From positions 17,120 through 81,119 of the forward strand of contig JBAZZC010000002.1 of NCBI GenBank assembly GCA_041658985.1: a DNA stretch of 64,000 bases, written 5' to 3'. The notes below the pieces were generated by a model. That model did no database searches, was not told the origin of the DNA, and was given only the letters and a program-made list of their open reading frames with translations. Both the position numbers and the translations under genes were made by a program. How positions within the stretch are numbered: position 1 is the stretch's first letter; the number at the start of each line of letters is the position of its first letter. Positions 1 to 17,711 of this stretch are shown here, one piece after another. The DNA comes from Minisyncoccota bacterium. GTDB lineage: Bacteria > Patescibacteriota > Minisyncoccia > Phycocordibacterales > DATDWN01.

Positions 1-1473
1 AGAGAATACGCTCAACAAAGAGGATATGATGTCGTAAAGGTTTTCAGGGATAGTTGCACGGGTGGAGGAGATTTTATGAATAGACCAGCAATGTCAGCCC
101 TTTTAGCCTTTCTGGATAAGGACCCAGTAAATAGTTACTTCGTGGTTTTTGATGATTTGAAAAGATTTGCTCGTGATACTGTATTTCATATCAAGCTAAG
201 ACGAGAGCTTGACGCTAGAGGAGCAACAGTAGGATGTCCGAACTTTACCTTTGAAGAAACACCAGAGGGTCAATTTATTGAAACAATAATTGCTGCTCAA
301 GGAGAGCTAGACAGAAAACAAAACCAAAGACAAGTGATACAGAAAATGAAGGCTAGGTTTGAGAAAGGATATTGGACTGTTGTTGCTCCATTAGGATACA
401 AGATGATGCAGGACCAAGTTCATGGAAAGATACTCAAAAAAGTAGAGCCTCAAGCAAGTATCATCAAAGAAGCTCTCGAAGGATTTGCTTCTGGTAGATT
501 TGAAAATCAGATTGATGTGCAGAATTTTCTACAACTAAATAAATTCAGAGGAGTAAAACCTGTTGCACTTGATTCAGTAAAAAAACTTTTGACTCGGTCA
601 GTCTATGCAGGATATGTTGAGTATGAAAAATGGAATGTGAGTAGACGAGTAGGACACCATGAACCAATTATCAGCTCTGTAATATTCCAAGAAATTCAAG
701 ATAAGCTAAATGGAAAAGTAAAAATCCTAACAAGAAAAGACAACACTAAGGAGTTTCCATTACGAGGATTTGTTCTTTGTCATGGTTGTAATAAAACAAT
801 GACAGCAAGTTGGACCACTGGCAGAAATGCAAAACACCCATATTATCATTGCAAGACAAAGGGTTGTTTTATGAAGGGAAAAAGCGTAAAAAGAAAGGTC
901 CTAGAGGACGAATTTGAGGCTATATTACGCTCTATAAAGCCCAAGGAGAAGACTTTAGCTTTAACAAAGGAAATACTACTAGATGTGTGGAATAAGAGAA
1001 TTGCTAATGTAGATATTATTCATAGAGAGCATGAAAACTCACTAGATGAGATTAGAGGAAAGATAAGAATGTTCTTAGATAGAATTGGAAAAACAGAAAA
1101 CGAAATGACAATCAAGACTTACGAAAAGGAAATGGAGAAGTTAACGCAAGAGGAGCAAACATTAGAGAATCAAATCAAAGTCATGAAAGGTAGTAGACCA
1201 GATTTTGGAACCGCTCTAGATATTACTTTTGATTTTCTGAAAAACCCTTATGTATACTGGAAGAAAGACGATTTAAAAGCAAAACACCTAGTATTGAAAC
1301 TGGTGTTTAGCGACCGATTAACATATGAACGAGGTCTAGGATTTCGAACCGCTAATTTATCCCTACCATTAAGGGTATTTGAGCTAAATCAACTAGACAA
1401 CTCTTCTTATGTGGACCCTAAGAGATTCGAACTCTTGACCTCCTCATTGCAAATGAGGCGCTCTACCAACTAA
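1..1473 (+). CDS. Large serine recombinase, 5'-truncated by the window edge. Resolvase-type catalytic domain, recombinase domain, Cys zinc-ribbon, coiled coil. Its 3' end overlaps tRNA-Ala.
   Basis: The reading frame is open from nt 1 (REYAQQRGYDVVKVFRDSCTGGGDFMNRPAMSALLAFL...). The DDLKRFARD and GATVGCPNFTFEE motifs are typical of the serine recombinase catalytic domain. There is a CHGC...YYHCKTKGC zinc ribbon. Confidence 0.7.
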   Translation, partial: REYAQQRGYDVVKVFRDSCTGGGDFMNRPAMSALLAFLDKDPVNSYFVVFDDLKRFARDTVFHIKLRRELDARGATVGCPNFTFEETPEGQFIETIIAAQGELDRKQNQRQVIQKMKARFEKGYWTVVAPLGYKMMQDQVHGKILKKVEPQASIIKEALEGFASGRFENQIDVQNFLQLNKFRGVKPVALDSVKKLLTRSVYAGYVEYEKWNVSRRVGHHEPIISSVIFQEIQDKLNGKVKILTRKDNTKEFPLRGFVLCHGCNKTMTASWTTGRNAKHPYYHCKTKGCFMKGKSVKRKVLEDEFEAILRSIKPKEKTLALTKEILLDVWNKRIANVDIIHREHENSLDEIRGKIRMFLDRIGKTENEMTIKTYEKEMEKLTQEEQTLENQIKVMKGSRPDFGTALDITFDFLKNPYVYWKKDDLKAKHLVLKLVFSDRLTYERGLGFRTANLSLPLRVFELNQLDNSSYVDPKRFELLTSSLQMRRSTN

Positions 1474-1484
1474 GCTAAGGGCCC
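1412..1484 (-). tRNA. tRNA-Ala (anticodon TGC), 73 nt, with the G3:U70 identity pair. The CCA end is not encoded.
   Basis: Reverse complement: GGGCCCTTAGCTTAGTTGGTAGAGCGCCTCATTTGCAATGAGGAGGTCAAGAGTTCGAATCTCTTAGGGTCCA. It folds as a cloverleaf. Anticodon loop is TT-TGC-AA. T-loop is TTCGAAT. Confidence 0.85.
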
Positions 1485-1718
1485 AATATTATTTAAAAAT
1501 TCTCTACCTTTTCCTGATTTCAAAAATCTTTCCCTTTTTATTGCCTCCACCTTTAAAGCATACGACTCAGTATAGATTAACTTATAAGGACCATTTTGAC
1601 TAGTGAATTTATTGGAACCATTATTGTGTTCAGTCAACCTTTCTACAGCGGTTTTTCCTGTATAGCCAATGTATCCTTTTTTATTTCTTAGACTTCTTAA
1701 TACATACACAACAAACAT
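1470..1718 (-). CDS. GIY-YIG nuclease family small protein; the 3' end of the ORF overlaps the tRNA 5' end by about 12 nt.
   Basis: YVLRS..KGYIGYTGKTAVERLTEHN matches the GIY-YIG motif. Size is about 82 aa. Confidence 0.6.
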   Translation of the reverse strand: MFVVYVLRSLRNKKGYIGYTGKTAVERLTEHNNGSNKFTSQNGPYKLIYTESYALKVEAIKRERFLKSGKGREFLNNIGPLA

Positions 1719-1766
1719 AATTTTTTGAATTCCGCCCCAGCCATAGGCTGGTCAGCCTTCGGCTGA

Positions 1767-1784
1767 AACTAAGCTAAGGGCCCA
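1767..1784. repeat. 18-nt direct repeat (aactaagctaagggccca) duplicating the 5' end of the tRNA-Ala gene (original at 1468-1485); an att-like or target-duplication signature.
   Basis: Exact 18/18 match, read directly. Confidence 0.7.
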
Positions 1785-1831
1785 GTAAATATTAGACTAA
1801 CAAAATTTTAATAACAGCACAAGTTTTATAA

Positions 1832-2422
1832 CTAAGCTACTACCCCGCTATTTTTTATATCATCGTAAAACTTGGCGTTGCTGATTTGTATATATGGTAT
1901 GAGCCAGAAAAAACCAATACCTAAGGTGGGAATACAAAGCAACATCCATCCAATAAATCTTAAACCCAAGCAGAATAATTTCCATTTATTACCCATCATC
2001 ATTTTTTTGCTTCTTTTTATAGCTTCTCTTGCGCCAACAGAGGCGTCATCGACTAGAATGTAAAATGTCATTGAGTATGAAAGGGCAGCTATAATGCCAG
2101 GAATTATCAAAAGCAATGTCCACAGCAACGTAAATAGCATTACAAGCAAGTATGCAGCCAGTGAAACACCAAATCTTTTGAAACCCTCAAAAATTTGTTC
2201 AAACCTAGGATTCTGGTTTCTTGATAACGACAAAGAAAAAATTACCAACCCAAGGGTCATTGGTCCGCTAATAAGTAAAAAAAGAATTGGACCAGCTTTT
2301 GGAATATATTGGATTGCACTACCAATTAAGACGTAAACAAACATAGTTCCTACAGCCAAGCCCCATTTACCAGCCAATGCTTCTCGTGCTTGCCTCATTA
2401 ATAGCGAGTTTTCTATTTTCAT
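1832..2422 (-). CDS. Polytopic membrane protein, DUF975/YciC-like.
   Basis: N-terminus MRQAREALAGKWGLAVG followed by 4-5 hydrophobic helices. Confidence 0.4.
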   Translation of the reverse strand: MKIENSLLMRQAREALAGKWGLAVGTMFVYVLIGSAIQYIPKAGPILFLLISGPMTLGLVIFSLSLSRNQNPRFEQIFEGFKRFGVSLAAYLLVMLFTLLWTLLLIIPGIIAALSYSMTFYILVDDASVGAREAIKRSKKMMMGNKWKLFCLGLRFIGWMLLCIPTLGIGFFWLIPYIQISNAKFYDDIKNSGVVA

Positions 2423-2877: not shown

Positions 2878-3237
2878 ATGGACAAAAATGTGATGAAGGA
2901 TACCTGGGTACCACTTTTGCTGTTTGTATTGTTTTTTGTTATTGAGGTTTTTCTTAAACCTTCAGAATCAACACTTACGACCTTAATTGTTTTTATTACT
3001 TTTGTTATTTTAGTGTTAGAGGTTCATAAGCATGAACCAAAAGTTTTTCTCTTAGGACTTATTATGGGATTGTTTATTGAGGTTGTTTTAGGACTGGTTT
3101 CAAGACAGCAGTTCTGGGATGACGCTTCTCTTATGGGTGTTCCTACTTGGCTACCAATTATCTGGGGAATTGGTTTTGTAATTATTACCCGAGTTGGTAT
3201 GAAGATTGAGGGTGTAAGGTGGCCGAAGGGTCAATAA
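2878..3237 (+). CDS. Small membrane protein, about 120 aa, 3-4 TM helices.
   Basis: ORF with ATG at 2878 (MDKNVMKDTWVPLLLFVLFF...), hydrophobic throughout. Confidence 0.45.
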   Translation: MDKNVMKDTWVPLLLFVLFFVIEVFLKPSESTLTTLIVFITFVILVLEVHKHEPKVFLLGLIMGLFIEVVLGLVSRQQFWDDASLMGVPTWLPIIWGIGFVIITRVGMKIEGVRWPKGQ

Positions 3238-3408
3238 AATGGAAAAAGTCTGGATTTTTAAAACAATTTTTATAATCTCTACTGATTCTGGGTTAAAAAT
3301 AAAAAAGAAAGATAGAAATAAATTTAAAATATTGTTTGGGGTTGGTGGTGAAAACCATTGACATAGTTAGTATTTGTGATATCATTAAGAAAGAAATGGA
3401 GGGAAACC

Positions 3409-3648
3409 ATGGGCCTGACTTTTTCGGGTAATTGGAACAATCACGTTTTGGCGATGGAAGAGTGTTGTGCTGGTCGTGGGAGAATGGAGATCACTCTCTC
3501 CGACGACCAGGAGCGAAAGCTCCAAAACGGCGGACTTGTCTCCCTGAAGGAGCGAGTCTCGCCGAGTCTCGCAGAGTGTCTCTCCGTCCGTCCCCATTGG
3601 CTCTCCGCGCCAGCGGCGCTCGTGGTTGATGCGACGAAGTCGCGCTGA
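3409..3648 (+). CDS. GC-rich small protein, cassette copy 1 (about 80 aa); paralog of 3861..4034.
   Basis: GGAGGG SD 5 nt before the ATG. About 60% GC in a 33% GC context. Followed by its own terminator. The MEITLSDDQERKLQNGGLVSLKERVSPSLAECL segment aligns with MEIDIPTKEYRRLLDGGLDRLKRKCSPNLASRLL of the paralog. Confidence 0.45.
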   Translation: MGLTFSGNWNNHVLAMEECCAGRGRMEITLSDDQERKLQNGGLVSLKERVSPSLAECLSVRPHWLSAPAALVVDATKSR

Positions 3649-3688
3649 CCATAAGCACCTCGCACCTCGCACCTCGTACCTTCCCGAA

Positions 3689-3722
3689 GCCGCACCTCTG
3701 CACAGGTGCGGCTTTATTCTTT
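3689..3722 (+). terminator. Intrinsic terminator: GCCGCACCU-cugcac-AGGUGCGGC followed by UUUAUUCUUU.
   Basis: Perfect 9-bp GC stem plus a T-rich tail. Confidence 0.75.
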
Positions 3723-3860
3723 GAACATAAAAACTTATTGAAATAGATCATAAATGTGTTAAGGTACAAAGCGGAGGGCAAAACATTGCCAAACTAAAAG
3801 TTCTCTGGGGATTGGGACAGACTCATCCCTGTCATGGAGGAGTACGCAAACTCCAACAGG

Positions 3861-4034
3861 ATGATGGAAATTGATATTCCAACTAAGGAATATCGGCGAC
3901 TTCTCGACGGCGGGCTAGATAGGCTGAAGAGAAAGTGCTCGCCGAATCTGGCTTCTCGCCTGCTTTTGCAAGAGGCGTTTGTAGAGGCCAGTCCGTCTCT
4001 CCTAATCTTTCACAAACCACTGCCGACGAGGTAG
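3861..4034 (+). CDS. GC-rich small protein, cassette copy 2 (possibly RHH-like: short strand then helices); the leader ORF is frameshifted relative to copy 1.
   Basis: MMEIDIPTKEYRRLLDGGLDRLKRK... About 55% GC. It has its own terminator with the same stem as copy 1. Confidence 0.4.
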   Translation: MMEIDIPTKEYRRLLDGGLDRLKRKCSPNLASRLLLQEAFVEASPSLLIFHKPLPTR

Positions 4035-4043
4035 TCTTAAGGA

Positions 4044-4075
4044 GCCGCACCCGTGGAGAGGTGCGGCTTTGTTCG
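4044..4075 (+). terminator. Intrinsic terminator: GCCGCACC-cguggaga-GGUGCGGC followed by UUUGUUCG.
   Basis: 8-bp perfect stem; same stem sequence as the terminator at 3689. Confidence 0.7.
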
Positions 4076-13982: not shown

Positions 13983-16559
13983 ATGGAGAAAGATAAACAA
14001 AAAGAATACAACCATCTAGAGATTGAGAAAAAATGGCAAAAAGAGTGGGACAAAAAGAAGGTCTACAAAACCAAGAAAATCGCCTCTTCGGCGATCCGCC
14101 GAGGAGGCGGAAAATGTTATGTCTTGGATATGTTCCCATACCCTAGTGGTTTAGGGCTTCATGTTGGACATCCTAAGGGTTACATTGGCTCTGACGTATA
14201 TGCTCGGATGAAAAGGATGCAAGGTTTCAATGTTTTGCATCCAATGGGATACGACGCTTTTGGTTTGCCTGCTGAGCAATATGCCTTAGAACACAAAATT
14301 GCTCCACAAAAAGCCGTAACGGAAAACGTAAAAACATTTGAGAGCCAATTAAATAAAATCGGGCTTTCATACGATTGGGATAGAAGAATAAACACAACAG
14401 ACCCAAGTTATTATCGCTGGACACAATGGATTTTTCTAAAACTTTACAACTCTTGGTACAACAAAGATAAAAACAAAGCTGAACCGATCGGTGAGCTAGT
14501 AAAAATATTTGAGAAATCAGATTTGGAATGGAAGAAAAAAAATTCAAAGGAAAAACAAGATATTTTGATGAAATATCGCCTAGCTTATGAAGGTTACAGT
14601 GAGGTTAACTGGTGTCCAGTTTTAGGTACTGTTCTTGCAAATGATGAAGTTCTAGATAGTCCGAAAGGTCCTATCTCAGAGAGAGGGGGATTCCCCGTAG
14701 TTAAAAAAGAGATGCGACAATGGTTTCTGCGTATTACCGCTTATGCAGACAGGTTGTTGTCAGGTTTGGAGACTCTGAATTGGTCGGAGCACATCAAGGA
14801 AATCCAAAGGAACTGGATTGGAGAAAGTAAAGGTTTGCTTTTTAAAGCAAAAGTGAAAGATTCAAATATTGTCTTGGAAACATTTAACGCACACTTCACA
14901 GCGTGTTACGCAGACACTTTTTTTGTAATTGCCCCGGACCACCCACTATTATCAAAGCTTCTAGAAGGAAGACCAGAGGAAAAAGAGGTTTTAGAGAAGG
15001 CCAAAGAAATTGTAGAAAAAAGAAACAAGTTTCCAGAAGGTGAATATCGGGAAATAGATGGAATTTTTACCGGCAGATATGCGGTTGACCCATTAGGTAA
15101 TGGTGATTTGCCTATTTGGGTGGCCAGCTTTGCTTTGAAAAATTATGGTACTGGTATTGTAAAATGTTCTGCTCATGATGAAAGAGATTTTGCCTTTGCT
15201 AAAAAATTTAATATTAAACTCAAGGTTGTTTTGTTACCCACAGATGAGAATTTAGGTAAAAAAGTTTTTGCTCAAGAAATTTGTTTTTCCGACATGGAGC
15301 GTGGAGTTTTAACTGAGCCACAAGAATTAATGGGTAGACGGGCTGGTGAGGTTAAAAATGAAATAATTAAACATGTTACATCTCGTGGATATGCCAAAGC
15401 TCTTACAATGTACAAGATGCGGGACGCTATTTTTGCCAGACAAAGATATTGGGGTGAACCAATTCCTCTTTTTAAAGATAAGGAAGGTTTAATAGGTGAA
15501 ATTCCTGAAAAAGACCTTCCTCTTAAATTACCAAAAGTTAAATCTTATATGCCGACAGGAACGGGGGAATCGCCTTTGGCCAGTGTGACTTCGTGGGTCA
15601 AAAAGGGGCTAGAAACAAATACCATGCCTGGGTGGGCTGGTTCCTCGTGGTATTTTCTTCGTTACATGGACCCAAAAAACAAGAAAGCTTTTGCTGACAG
15701 AAAAGCTATTAAATACTGGAAGAATGTCGATATGTATGTTGGTGGTCAGGAACATGCTACGGGGCATTTATTGTATTCTCGTTTCTGGAATAAATTTTTA
15801 AAGGATTATGATTTAGTTGTGACAGAGGAGCCGTTTCAGACACTTAGAAACCAGGGAATGATTTTAGGTAGTGATAATCGTAAAATGAGTAAGCGGTGGG
15901 GGAATGTAATAAACCCAGATGATGTTGTCAGAATATATGGGGCAGACACCTTACGCGTTTACGAAATGTTTATGGGGCCTTTTGAAGCGTCACTGCCGTG
16001 GAGTACTGATAATATACTCGGCGCCCGGAGGTTCATTGAGAAGGTTTGGCGCCTCAAGTCGAAAGTTGAAAGTCGAAAGTTTATAAAGTCTTCAGAAAAT
16101 ATTGAAAGAGCACTTCATAAAACAATTAAAAAAGTCACAGAGGATATTGAAAGTTTTGCCTTTAATACTGCTATATCTAGCATGATGATTTTCTTGAATG
16201 AAATGGAAAAACAAGAATTCGTTGCAAAAAAAGATTTTGAATTATTTTTAAAAATACTTTCTCCTTTTGCTCCTCACATAACAGAAGAAGTTTGGAAGTC
16301 TTTCGGACACAAAATATTTTTAGTTTTAGAAAAATGGCCTCAGGTTGATATAAAAAAAATACAGGAATTAGAAATAAAAATTGTTGTGCAAATAAATGGT
16401 AAAATACGAGCAACCATTCAAATCCATTTTGGGGCAAAAGAAGAGGAGGTCATCTCTTTGGTCAGAGGATTGTCGGAAGTGGAAAAATGGCTTCTTAATA
16501 AAGAGGTCAAAAAAACTATTTTTGTCCCAAATAGGCTTATAAATATAGTCACTTTTTAA
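13983..16559 (+). CDS. leuS: Leucyl-tRNA synthetase.
   Basis: MFPYPSGLGLHVGHPKGYIGSDVYARMKRMQGFNVLHPMGYDAFGLPAE, KMSKR, 858 aa. Confidence 0.9.
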   Translation: MEKDKQKEYNHLEIEKKWQKEWDKKKVYKTKKIASSAIRRGGGKCYVLDMFPYPSGLGLHVGHPKGYIGSDVYARMKRMQGFNVLHPMGYDAFGLPAEQYALEHKIAPQKAVTENVKTFESQLNKIGLSYDWDRRINTTDPSYYRWTQWIFLKLYNSWYNKDKNKAEPIGELVKIFEKSDLEWKKKNSKEKQDILMKYRLAYEGYSEVNWCPVLGTVLANDEVLDSPKGPISERGGFPVVKKEMRQWFLRITAYADRLLSGLETLNWSEHIKEIQRNWIGESKGLLFKAKVKDSNIVLETFNAHFTACYADTFFVIAPDHPLLSKLLEGRPEEKEVLEKAKEIVEKRNKFPEGEYREIDGIFTGRYAVDPLGNGDLPIWVASFALKNYGTGIVKCSAHDERDFAFAKKFNIKLKVVLLPTDENLGKKVFAQEICFSDMERGVLTEPQELMGRRAGEVKNEIIKHVTSRGYAKALTMYKMRDAIFARQRYWGEPIPLFKDKEGLIGEIPEKDLPLKLPKVKSYMPTGTGESPLASVTSWVKKGLETNTMPGWAGSSWYFLRYMDPKNKKAFADRKAIKYWKNVDMYVGGQEHATGHLLYSRFWNKFLKDYDLVVTEEPFQTLRNQGMILGSDNRKMSKRWGNVINPDDVVRIYGADTLRVYEMFMGPFEASLPWSTDNILGARRFIEKVWRLKSKVESRKFIKSSENIERALHKTIKKVTEDIESFAFNTAISSMMIFLNEMEKQEFVAKKDFELFLKILSPFAPHITEEVWKSFGHKIFLVLEKWPQVDIKKIQELEIKIVVQINGKIRATIQIHFGAKEEEVISLVRGLSEVEKWLLNKEVKKTIFVPNRLINIVTF
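14081..14109. repeat. 29-nt GC-rich palindrome (CGCCTCTTCGGCG-atc-CGCCGAGGAGGCG) inserted in-frame near the leuS N-terminus (encodes SSAIRRGGG).
   Basis: 13-nt arms with 1 mismatch. Local GC far above the gene average. It interrupts the conserved K.YYVLDMFPYPSG region. Confidence 0.55.
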
Positions 16560-16673
16560 TACATAAGAATCTTTAATAACATAATTCGTCAATGCTTGAC
16601 TTAGATTGACAATAATGATACAAATAGGGTACATTTGTTGTAACTAATTTTAGTAATTATTAGTAGATATTAC

Positions 16674-17711
16674 ATGATAGAAAAAACACCAATCACATTT
16701 AAACCAAAGCAGATAGTAAAAAAACTACTTTCTGTGTTAGGTAATAGGTCACAAGATGTATTAATAAATCGTTTTGGTTTAGGTAGCGATACGAAGCGGA
16801 TGACTCTTGAAGCGATTGGAAAAAAATATAAGATTACTCGTGAACGCGTAAGACAAATTGAAAACTATTCAATTATTAATATTCGCAAATCAAAAGAGTA
16901 CACGAAAGAGAAACTAGTTTTTGATGAATTAAAAAACATAGTCACAAATTTAGGTTCAGTTATCTCTGAAGAACATCTTTTACAACATCTCTCAAAAGAT
17001 AAAAGTATTCAAAATCATTTACATTTTTTACTTGTAATAGGTGAAGATTTTCATAGGGAAAAAGAAGATGACGAGTTTAAACATCGCTGGACAGTTGATA
17101 AAGAATTATCAAAAAAGATTCATTTATCCCTTCGTCAGCTTTATTCAACTCTGTCGGATGACGAAATTTTACTTGAGTCAGATATGATAGAAAAATTTTT
17201 AGACAGTTTGAAAGATGTTTCAGATAAATATAAAAATCAAGAAATAGCAAAAAGATGGTTAGAGCTTTCAAAATTAATTGGTAAAAATCCTCTCGGCGAG
17301 TGGGGAAAGACAAAATCACCAAACATAAATGCCAAAGGCATGCGAGATTATGCTTTTTTGGTTATTCGTCGACACGGTTCTCCTATCCATTTTAGAGAGG
17401 TAGCAAAGCTCATTACCGAATTATTTAAGAAAAAAGCTCATATAGCAACAACACACAACGAATTAATAAAAGACCCTAGATTTGTTTTGGTTGGAAGGGG
17501 TTTATATGCCTTATCCGAGTGGGGATATATGAGTGGGGTAGTAAAGGATGTTATCAAAACAGTTTTAGAGAAAAATGGTCCGATGACAAAGGATGAAATT
17601 ATAAAGAAGGTCTTGAAAGAGAGATATGTTAAGGAGAATACCATCATGGTAAATCTTCAGAATCCGAAATATTTTAAGAAATCTAAAGACGGAAAATATA
17701 ATGTGATTTAG
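16674..17711 (+). CDS. Sigma-70 region-4-like HTH plus C-terminal HARE-HTH domain protein (putative transcription factor).
   Basis: ITRERVRQIE is the region 4.2 signature. The C-terminal ...FREVAKLI...FVLVGRGLYALSEWGY is HARE-HTH-like. Confidence 0.5.
   Translation: MIEKTPITFKPKQIVKKLLSVLGNRSQDVLINRFGLGSDTKRMTLEAIGKKYKITRERVRQIENYSIINIRKSKEYTKEKLVFDELKNIVTNLGSVISEEHLLQHLSKDKSIQNHLHFLLVIGEDFHREKEDDEFKHRWTVDKELSKKIHLSLRQLYSTLSDDEILLESDMIEKFLDSLKDVSDKYKNQEIAKRWLELSKLIGKNPLGEWGKTKSPNINAKGMRDYAFLVIRRHGSPIHFREVAKLITELFKKKAHIATTHNELIKDPRFVLVGRGLYALSEWGYMSGVVKDVIKTVLEKNGPMTKDEIIKKVLKERYVKENTIMVNLQNPKYFKKSKDGKYNVI

Follow-up and report, generated by a model that had tools for sequence, protein, structure and literature searches.

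A tRNA-Ala gene of a Minisyncoccota bacterium probably invaded from both ends by two unrelated selfish elements

To our knowledge, tRNA genes are classic landing sites of integrative elements, which always enter through recombinases acting at the 3' half of the gene. Islands and prophages integrated at the 3' ends of tRNA and tmRNA genes by tyrosine integrases were reportedly described by Williams in 2002. Here, a stretch of 64,000 nucleotides (nt) of a Minisyncoccota bacterium (contig JBAZZC010000002.1, positions 17,120 to 81,119; referred to as the window) was analysed, in which a tRNA-Ala gene adjoins a gene for a large serine recombinase at its 3' end and a small cassette with a gene for a GIY-YIG nuclease at its 5' end. 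The two features are very probably independent insertions. The tRNA gene was probably invaded from both ends by two unrelated selfish elements, the one at the 5' end being best modelled as a homing-type cassette with a replacement tRNA 5' end.

The closest described architecture to that of the cassette is found in the endonuclease open reading frames (ORFs) of fungal mitochondria known as mORFs, which carry a replacement gene terminus, as in atp6 of Allomyces macrogynus and in atp6, atp9, cox2 and nad3 of Glomus (PMC3630166). In both systems, an endonuclease ORF directly adjoins an essential gene and supplies one of its ends anew, the gene stays functional and the displaced native end remains adjacent as a dead duplicate. 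The mORFs spread by cutting ORF-less alleles and the same step is proposed for the cassette. The cassette differs in that its host gene is a bacterial tRNA gene and the replaced end is the 5' end, with a length of merely 8–29 nt. Its nuclease is a minimal SLX1-like domain of 80 amino acids (aa), its duplicate is almost always identical to the functional copy and a conserved double hairpin is present at its junction, whereas nothing comparable has been reported for mORFs. We regard the cassette as a variant of an endonuclease ORF with a replacement gene end, and there is a fair chance that it forms a distinct class because of the hairpin junction.

Among bacterial viruses, the Seg endonucleases are the closest analogues. 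SegB, a free-standing GIY-YIG homing endonuclease, is encoded in the tRNA gene cluster of T4 (PMC2330249), and the likeness lies in a GIY-YIG gene placed beside tRNA genes. Seg genes are inherited with flanking markers after cutting of the rival allele, which is also proposed for the cassette. However, Seg proteins possess a DNA-binding domain and belong to the I-TevI lineage, and neither a duplication of the target end nor a hairpin was described for them. In the literature covered, which is incomplete and may have missed an earlier account, no description was found of the cassette, the hairpin unit, their arrangement or the tRNA-targeting recombinase lineage.

The nuclease cassette at the 5' end

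Both ARAGORN and Rfam detected one tRNA gene at the locus, an intact tRNA-Ala(TGC) on the minus strand (1411–1484 in ARAGORN; Rfam RF00005 at 1412–1484, 73 bits). The GIY-YIG ORF (1470–1718, minus strand; PF01541, E 2e-13) encodes a single-domain protein of 82 aa, and its last five codons with the TAG stop coincide with tRNA positions 1–15 (15 nt). The 18-mer AACTAAGCTAAGGGCCCA, comprising tRNA positions -1 to 17, occurs in the functional gene (1468–1485) and again as a displaced 5' fragment of the tRNA-Ala gene (1767–1784). These were its only two occurrences even with three mismatches allowed. The expected count was 0.04 and none of 100 shuffled sequences contained two matches, which removes the objection of a chance repeat. 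The reading made from the sequence alone had described the duplicate as the first 18 nt of the tRNA and placed a 288-bp segment between the copies. The exact 18-nt copy is real, and it covers tRNA positions 1–17 plus one upstream base; the spacing was measured as 281 nt (299 nt from start to start).

Between the displaced fragment and the start of the ORF lies a double hairpin of 30 nt (1737–1766; TCAGCC-GAA-GGCTGA followed by CCAGCC-TAT-GGCTGG), each half of which consists of a 6-bp stem and a 3-nt loop. It is placed exactly after tRNA position 17 of the displaced fragment, and no other copy was found in the window. A leader of 18 nt (1719–1736, minus strand) separates the double hairpin from the ATG, and its first GG alone continues the tRNA sequence. 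The nuclease gene and the two GC hairpins of the sequence-only reading are therefore present as described. Its proposal that the GIY-YIG gene is a small insertion which duplicated the tRNA 5' end also held, since the 18-mer belongs to the cassette and the layout recurs at many tRNA genes. The exact GIY-YIG protein was found on three public contigs of Candidatus Paceibacterota (Patescibacteria), two of which (L001 and L002) reach to the left of the window and, over 11.7 kb, are identical to it except for a single base (window coordinate = 11719 minus L001 coordinate).

Relatives of the nuclease are encoded at 543 or more loci in GTDB species representatives, and the best 80 of these, with 83 ORFs, were surveyed. 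A tRNA gene on the same strand started within -24 to +34 nt of the ORF stop for 53 of the 83 ORFs. Nearly all of the remaining ORFs, when read by eye, ran into a tRNA remnant followed by an intact tRNA, into a tRNA-Asn gene split by an insert or into a contig end inside a tRNA. The partner tRNAs were of at least ten kinds, with Asn as the commonest and Ala, Val, Ile, Phe, Thr, Met, Pro, Arg and Lys as the others. The stop codon of the ORF was located at tRNA positions 8–11, in the conserved U8-A9-G10, in 28 of the 53 cases. The first 12 nt or more of the tRNA were repeated 50–120 nt upstream of the ORF at 40 of 56 loci and in none of the control regions (0/53 and 0/49), the longest run of 5'-tRNA sequence having a mean length of 14.7 nt versus 6.1 and 6.3 nt in the controls.

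The general architecture of the cassette was tRNA 1..N, double hairpin, tRNA N+1..M, leader, ORF and tRNA 1..76, which corresponds to the mORF-type layout with the ORF abutting the host gene and the duplicated terminus on the far side. The remnant was identical to its own tRNA up to the hairpin at 33 of 44 loci. At three loci (L021, L024 and L041), it diverged from the adjacent tRNA and resembled the tRNA of another genome carrying the same cassette lineage. Synonymous divergence between cassettes was often near saturation while the remnants were still identical to the tRNAs, and the remnants must therefore be young, homogenised or under selection. Simple scans revealed neither a promoter nor a terminator for the cassette. 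The family seems to have a wide distribution among Patescibacteria and further uncultured phyla.

The double hairpin was equally constant in the family. The consensus of the 30-nt unit was N-C-[C/A]-G-C-C, loop, G-G-C-[G/T]-G-N', repeated twice. The first loop was rich in purines (AAA, AGA, GAA) and the second in pyrimidines (TCC, TCT, TTT), which makes the unit nearly two-fold symmetric. A search of 443 kb, in which the invariant GCC...GGC cores alone were fixed and pairing was not presupposed, revealed 92 double hairpins, 88 of them within 150 nt upstream or 600 nt downstream of a cassette ORF. At the variable stem positions, 34 A-T and 37 C-G pairs and no mismatches were counted, compared with 35.6 Watson-Crick pairs expected if the positions were independent, and the second stem showed the same pattern of covariation. 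Such perfect covariation indicates that the hairpins are selected as structures, in DNA or RNA. A double hairpin preceded the ORF by no more than 150 nt in 64 of the 83 cases. In the remnant, it was inserted after tRNA position 17 (12 loci, including the window), 28–29 (8 loci), 12–13 (9 loci) or 8 (6 loci).

Rfam contained no family for the hairpins or for the cassette leader. The unit resembles the REP/BIME repeats with their RAYT proteins and MITE-like palindromes in that short GC-rich hairpin pairs stand beside a small nuclease gene. The cassette hairpins differ in not being dispersed, in lying inside tRNA fragments only and in having no HUH transposase with them. A dispersed REP-like or MITE-like repeat was rejected on the grounds of the single copy in 64 kb and of the 88 of 92 units located beside cassettes. 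Repair scars of the P-nucleotide type were rejected as well, given that the sequence is constant and unrelated to the flanks. The hairpin may be a recognition feature for a structure-specific nuclease, or it may break up the repeat and so counteract the loss of the cassette by recombination.

Turnover of the cassette was observed in several comparisons. Loci L062 and L064, from different species representatives, had in common only a block of 331 nt with 99.4% identity, consisting of 8 nt of the remnant, the hairpin unit, the leader, the ORF and tRNA positions 1–35, and the 2.9 kb upstream was unrelated. One of the two tRNAs carried an anticodon-loop insert which by its appearance, outside the Rfam scan, resembled a group I intron, and the other had no insert. 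The ORF proteins were identical, and an extra hairpin was present in the remnant of L062 and missing from that of L064. Loci L018 and L027 were syntenic at 91–97% identity and differed by a clean unit of 113 nt between the ORF and the tRNA, comprising tRNA-Pro positions -1 to 17, the hairpin unit, positions 18–22 and about 60 nt resembling a degraded leader.

In a related genome (L085), the same tRNA-Ala 5' sequence followed a promoter-like region with neither cassette nor recombinase. The closest DUF975 relatives (73% identity) were not syntenic at the tRNA, which makes this a loose comparison of an empty site. The GIY-YIG gene is accordingly not conserved at this position in all relatives; its conservation there without the duplication was what the sequence-only reading had named as counting against an insertion. 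Patchy presence and near-identical copies in unrelated DNA, as expected of homing genes, were thus found in L062/L064, L018/L027 and L085. Whole cassettes in tandem occurred at L006 and L022, and repeated ORF-less units at L065 and L033. Among nearest-neighbour ORFs, the tRNA type was the same in 21 and different in 14, the closest pairs examined (about 77–91% identity) having the same type. At L007, L068 and L076, as far as the contigs extend, an intact tRNA was accompanied by a copy which would fit a full-length, non-functional tRNA with a solo hairpin unit.

The 82-aa protein scored 50.6 bits against PF01541 (cut-off 22.6), which places it in the GIY-YIG superfamily, and no second Pfam domain was detected. 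It therefore does not show the combination of a catalytic and a DNA-binding domain characteristic of homing enzymes. Residues Y5, Y16, G18, H31, E51 and E63, the first five of which are catalytic, were invariant in 39 aligned sequences and R27 was present in most of them, as read by eye from the alignment blocks. The AlphaFold model (pLDDT 90.6) had the order E-E-H-H-E-H-H, a GIY-YIG fold with one C-terminal helix. The nearest solved folds in Foldseek were UPF0213 (1zg2/1ywl) and SLX1 (TM 0.62–0.68), with I-TevI farther away (E 0.5). The profile search likewise matched UPF0213 (E 1e-10) and SLX1 (E 2e-4) and gave no I-TevI match, so that I-TevI and UvrC are more distant from the protein than UPF0213 and SLX1 and an assignment to the I-TevI/UvrC lineage was not obtained. 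SLX1 is a structure-specific nuclease which cuts branched DNA. Close homologues numbered 86, had a length of about 80 aa and came mostly from Patescibacteria, and a profile search gave 5,465 clusters at E ≤ 1e-10. The protein had no match among 50,697 phage records and no NCBIfam model. The ratio of nonsynonymous to synonymous substitution (dN/dS) was 0.07–0.21 in 12 pairs, which indicates strong purifying selection. In an older survey, stand-alone bacterial Slx1-like proteins were treated as the minimal form of the domain (PMC1564403).

Several observations concern the cassette family more broadly. Database proteins P0012, P0333, P0369, P0327 and P0328 carry N-terminal extensions which translate the double hairpin (QPEADQPLAG) or a whole tRNA (...VAKWSKA...RRFES...). 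Many gene calls in the family have such extensions; wrongly called starts are the likely cause, and the extensions could serve to trace members in a census. Assembled contigs frequently break off within the tRNA downstream of the GIY-YIG ORF or shortly behind it (L003, a Logan contig of 3,409 nt, and many survey loci); cassettes and repeats probably break short-read assemblies.

At no fewer than 11 loci, a tRNA-Asn(GTT) gene with an anticodon-loop insert of about 190–300 nt directly followed the GIY-YIG ORF (L028, L035, L044, L046, L051, L053, L059, L062, L078, L080 and L082; about 3230–3560 in most). These split genes were missed by ARAGORN. Among four loci scanned with the Rfam Intron_gpI model, a group I intron was found in L046 (83 bits) and L044 (60 bits) and none above the threshold in L035 and L082. 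Collaborative homing, in which a free-standing endonuclease acts together with a group I intron, was reportedly described by Zeng, Bonocora and Shub in 2009, and the free-standing nuclease gene upstream of an intron-bearing tRNA-Asn, confirmed as group I in L046 and L044, resembles that case. The cassette itself was ruled out as a group I intron or split tRNA because the downstream tRNA is complete. A further ORF was noticed at the intron position of the tRNA-Asn in L063 (about 3330–3700), and this intron may carry its own endonuclease gene. In L045 (about 3250–3510), a second, divergent GIY-YIG ORF (MFYCYILKS...) lies between a tRNA-Ala fragment (positions 1–35, ending in the anticodon loop) and a complete tRNA-Ala. 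No double hairpin is present in this second unit, and other GIY-YIG subfamilies may share the 5'-replacement layout while breaking the tRNA at another position.

The repeat search also revealed a third 5'-tRNA-like fragment in the window, GCGGGGTAGTAGCTTAGTT (1830–1848, minus strand). It has TAGCTTAGTT in common with the tRNA-Ala and a different acceptor arm. The DUF975 gene takes its final five codons and its stop from this fragment, and the DUF975 gene of a relative ends differently.

The recombinase-borne element at the 3' end

The recombinase ORF enters from the left edge of the window (1–1473, plus strand; 490 codons of the 519 aa), and its final 63 nt (21 codons) are antisense to the tRNA-Ala gene. 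That the ORF ends inside this tRNA gene, as first noticed in the sequence, was confirmed by ARAGORN, Rfam, and the ORF and Pfam calls. The full-length protein, recovered from L001, has 519 aa and contains the domains Resolvase (PF00239), Recombinase (PF07508) and Zn_ribbon_recom (PF13408), all above cut-offs, with PHROG 95 integrase, a phage serine-integrase family, matched at E 2e-67. It did not pass as any named equivalog, with 77 bits for CcrB, 48 for CcrC and 55 for XisF versus cut-offs of 900, 900 and 375.

The repeat search and a reading of the sequence placed the core of the attachment site (att), 19 nt with the sequence CGAATCTCTTAGGGTCCAC on the tRNA strand, at the 3' end of the tRNA (1411–1429). 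A second, exact copy was found outside the window, 6,050 bp away (L001 16340–16358). The sequence-only reading had expected an integrative element on the left, with a second att site and cargo. The 6,050-bp recombinase-bearing element was indeed recovered from the identical public contigs together with its cargo, the second site being a copy of the tRNA 3' end and not of the 18-mer. The recombinase gene is the edge gene of this element, which lies mostly to the left of the window and encodes, between the repeats, the recombinase, a trypsin-like protease and about nine small ORFs without informative matches. The GC content of the interior was 0.27–0.35 in comparison with 0.36–0.47 in the flanks, and ddl and tgt lie beyond the far repeat. 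It is a small integrated element and not a complete phage. An integration signature at the tRNA gene was thus supported. The two alternatives offered for it, an element on the left or a small insertion on the right, each hold, as two separate elements and not as rival accounts of one repeat.

The tRNA gene stays whole because the element carries the 19-nt copy of its 3' end. The element would have entered the T-arm/acceptor part of the tRNA-Ala through the large serine recombinase which it encodes; apart from this recombination step, its structure can be read from the repeats, gene content and boundaries. Translation of the reconstructed junction suggests that the att core lies inside the recombinase ORF and that the protein would end in ...VDPKRFGHEFLIC in the excised form and in ...VDPKRFELLTSSLQMRRSTN in the integrated form. 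The integrated ORF would read antisense into the tRNA because the attachment site is inside the 3' end of the recombinase gene.

Like the islands at tRNA 3' ends, the 6-kb element has the tRNA 3' end for its attB, makes the gene whole again with its own copy and has its integrase next to the att site. It differs in that the enzyme is a large serine recombinase whose gene overlaps the att site, so that integration changes its C-terminal tail. With the large serine recombinases (CcrB, CcrC, XisF and phiC31-type), it has in common the three-domain architecture, weak matches to the CcrB, XisF and CcrC models, the position of the recombinase at the edge of the integrated element and a short att identity. 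The scores, however, were far below the curated cut-offs (77 vs 900 bits), and the lineage targets tRNA and tmRNA genes instead of protein-coding genes. The element is ordinary in kind.

Integration at tRNA genes by serine recombinases had been called much rarer than by tyrosine integrases, which needs qualifying, as the present lineage does so regularly. Many homologues with 67–78% identity have exactly 519 aa. In more than 20 homologues (48–90% identity), the C-terminal peptides are translations of antisense tRNA T-arm/acceptor sequence with G[FLI]EP motifs, for example ...VDPTGLEPATPSLQMRCSTR, ...VEMARIELACKR and ...VEVGRIELPSES. The recombinases of L128 and L129 (76% identity) have the same 63-nt antisense overlap with tRNA-Ala(TGC) as in the window, that of L090 (38% identity, viral contig) overlaps tRNA-Ala(GGC) and that of L130 (51% identity) overlaps the 3' end of the tmRNA gene next to smpB. 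A single-sequence search of viral contigs gave no close relative of the recombinase and a profile search gave six useful loci. Three more viral contigs have tRNA 3' fragments or antisense T-arm-like sequence under the end of the ORF. As judged from these sequences, tRNA/tmRNA targeting is a regular habit of the lineage.

Two large serine recombinase genes on the same strand, 6.6 kb apart, were noticed upstream of one tRNA-Ala in L128 (2379–3911 and 9001–10560), and the pair may belong to tandem or composite elements. On the outer side of the far att repeat in L001, about 0.5 kb (16370–16900) with a GC content of 0.46–0.47 contains two small membrane-protein ORFs which were not called in the source annotation. 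This may be another foreign insert beside the 6-kb element.

Elsewhere in the window, two GC-rich segments (3376–3720 and 3790–4075, plus strand) stand out in the AT-rich genome, with ORFs open in every frame. At the end of each segment lies a terminator-like hairpin, nearly the same in both, GCCGCACC...GGTGCGGCTTT (about 3689–3716 and 4045–4072). The segments look like two related structured non-coding RNAs, and no Rfam family matched them even at E ≤ 1.

Proposed origin and spread of the cassette

From the architecture observed, we infer that a cassette of about 300 bp would have been inserted in the D-loop after tRNA position 17. It would have brought the double hairpin, the short leader, the 82-aa SLX1-like GIY-YIG gene and a substitute for tRNA positions 1–17. 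This incoming 5' end would complete a functional tRNA and supply the stop codon of the nuclease, and the old 5' end would have been pushed upstream as the 18-nt remnant. In the homing mechanism proposed, the chances of which we regard as even on the sequences compared, the nuclease would break cassette-free copies of the same tRNA gene and repair would copy the cassette in. The homology arms would be built in, with the remnant as the left arm and the tRNA as the right one, and because of this the cassette could enter the same tRNA gene in any genome without flanking synteny. Homing with built-in arms would explain the spread without common flanks seen in L062/L064, as well as remnants made of the recipient's own sequence. 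Out-of-register repair after self-cutting would produce the tandem arrays, and recombination between the long repeats would lead to precise loss of the cassette. Recombination between the short repeats (N+1..M) would result in a solo hairpin unit within a tRNA that is full-length but no longer functional.

A number of points weigh against this reading. The nuclease activity, the target site and the transfer are predicted steps. The intact tRNA beside the ORF retains the presumed target sequence, and the homing model does not explain its escape from cutting. The 82-aa protein is devoid of a DNA-binding domain such as those on which the specificity of known GIY-YIG homing enzymes depends. Neither the double hairpin nor its position 5–9 nt inside the end of the displaced fragment at 29 of 37 loci is predicted by the model. 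Nor does it predict the mirror-image units found downstream of intact tRNAs, in which the intact tRNA is followed by a spacer, 5–10 nt of tRNA, the hairpin unit and the rest of the tRNA (L038 3368, L056 3367, L067 3347, L008 3332, L041 3358, L007 3358, L024 3323, L074 3353 and L043 3378; with the hairpin in the T-loop in two cases). The strong purifying selection and the very wide distribution would also fit a gene beneficial to the host. The predicted cassette-free tRNA-Ala site and the predicted empty attB of the 6-kb element had no exact match in metagenome contigs. The predicted attP had none in viral contigs, no excised form was found, and no long att repeat was found in L128/L129. Because the hairpin, its offset, the mirror units and the uncut tRNA are left unexplained by homing, two rival explanations were kept alive, the stronger based on the hairpin and the weaker on a host gene.

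According to the former, which we consider unlikely, a transposon-like element has the double hairpin as its active end. The nuclease would cut the hairpin (as a cruciform), the hairpin, ORF and tRNA fragment would move as a small circle or by cut-and-paste, and the ORF-less units would depend on mobilisation in trans. Among solved structures, the closest relative is a structure-specific nuclease for branched DNA, and the hairpin stands exactly at the junction in both 5'-type and 3'-type units, 5–10 nt from the fragment end. The existence of ORF-less units and the extra hairpin of L062, missing from L064 despite identical ORF proteins, speak in the same direction, and the structure would be the expected product of integrating a circle with a hairpin-interrupted tRNA fragment. 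As far as we know, however, GIY-YIG enzymes hydrolyse DNA and strand transfer is not known for them, and no circular or free form was found. The solo hairpins in complete pseudo-tRNAs are no proof of independent hairpin movement because short-repeat recombination also yields them.

If the GIY-YIG gene were instead a host gene co-transcribed with tRNAs, encoding an RNA- or DNA-processing nuclease of tRNA metabolism, the leader and hairpins would be a regulatory or stabilising RNA and not an insertion scar. The low dN/dS, the thousands of clusters, the fixed position of the ORF at the tRNA 5' end with its stop codon inside the tRNA, and the covariation of the hairpins, which suits an RNA structure as well as a DNA structure, would all agree with such a role. 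A bacterial Slx1-like domain fused to a TrmH-type tRNA methyltransferase was also taken to suggest a role with RNA (PMC1564403). Nevertheless, the partner tRNA varies between close homologues (14 of 35 nearest neighbours differ) and each leader copies whichever tRNA adjoins. Tandem copies, ORF-less units and indels occur between close relatives, a near-identical block is found in unrelated contexts (L062/L064) and the gene is missing from the same tRNA gene in a relative. We therefore regard a host function as quite improbable.

Both features adjoin on one tRNA gene, and the 18-nt duplicate could be seen as a by-product of the recombinase element, part of its att site, or as a chance repeat with an unrelated GIY-YIG neighbour. 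This was refuted by the 19-nt repeat which the recombinase element has of its own at the opposite tRNA end, by the 18-mer statistics and by the recurrence of the layout of ORF and 5' duplicate in dozens of loci, and it deserves next to no credence. No recombinase was seen next to the cassette in the loci read closely, the 80 loci as a whole not having been scanned for recombinases.

Compared with these alternatives, homing by a cassette with built-in arms was favoured. A broader proposal, which we advance tentatively and rate a little below an even chance, is that the SLX1-like gene, the 30-nt double hairpin and the tRNA fragments constitute an unrecognised class of bacterial mobile element. 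It would invade the 5' side of tRNA genes, with an ORF-less mirror form on the 3' side, and bring along both a replacement for the gene end and homology arms derived from tRNA. Instead of a sequence-reading DNA-binding domain, it would rely on a structure-specific nuclease and on a junction formed by the hairpin.

Meaning for tRNA genes of uncultured bacteria

The recombinase lineage comprises serine integrases with predictable tRNA/tmRNA target sites, which are of interest as genome-engineering tools, and a compact, structure-guided nuclease could result from the cassette if the proposal is true. The proposal would also account for the clustering of contig breaks and of small "GIY-YIG family" genes at the tRNA genes of uncultured bacteria, and for the mis-called N-terminal extensions in thousands of database proteins. 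With about 300 bp, the cassette would be among the smallest autonomous mobile units known. By settling at the 5' end and restoring the gene, such a minimal nuclease cassette would represent a second, mechanistically different form of tRNA-gene parasitism.

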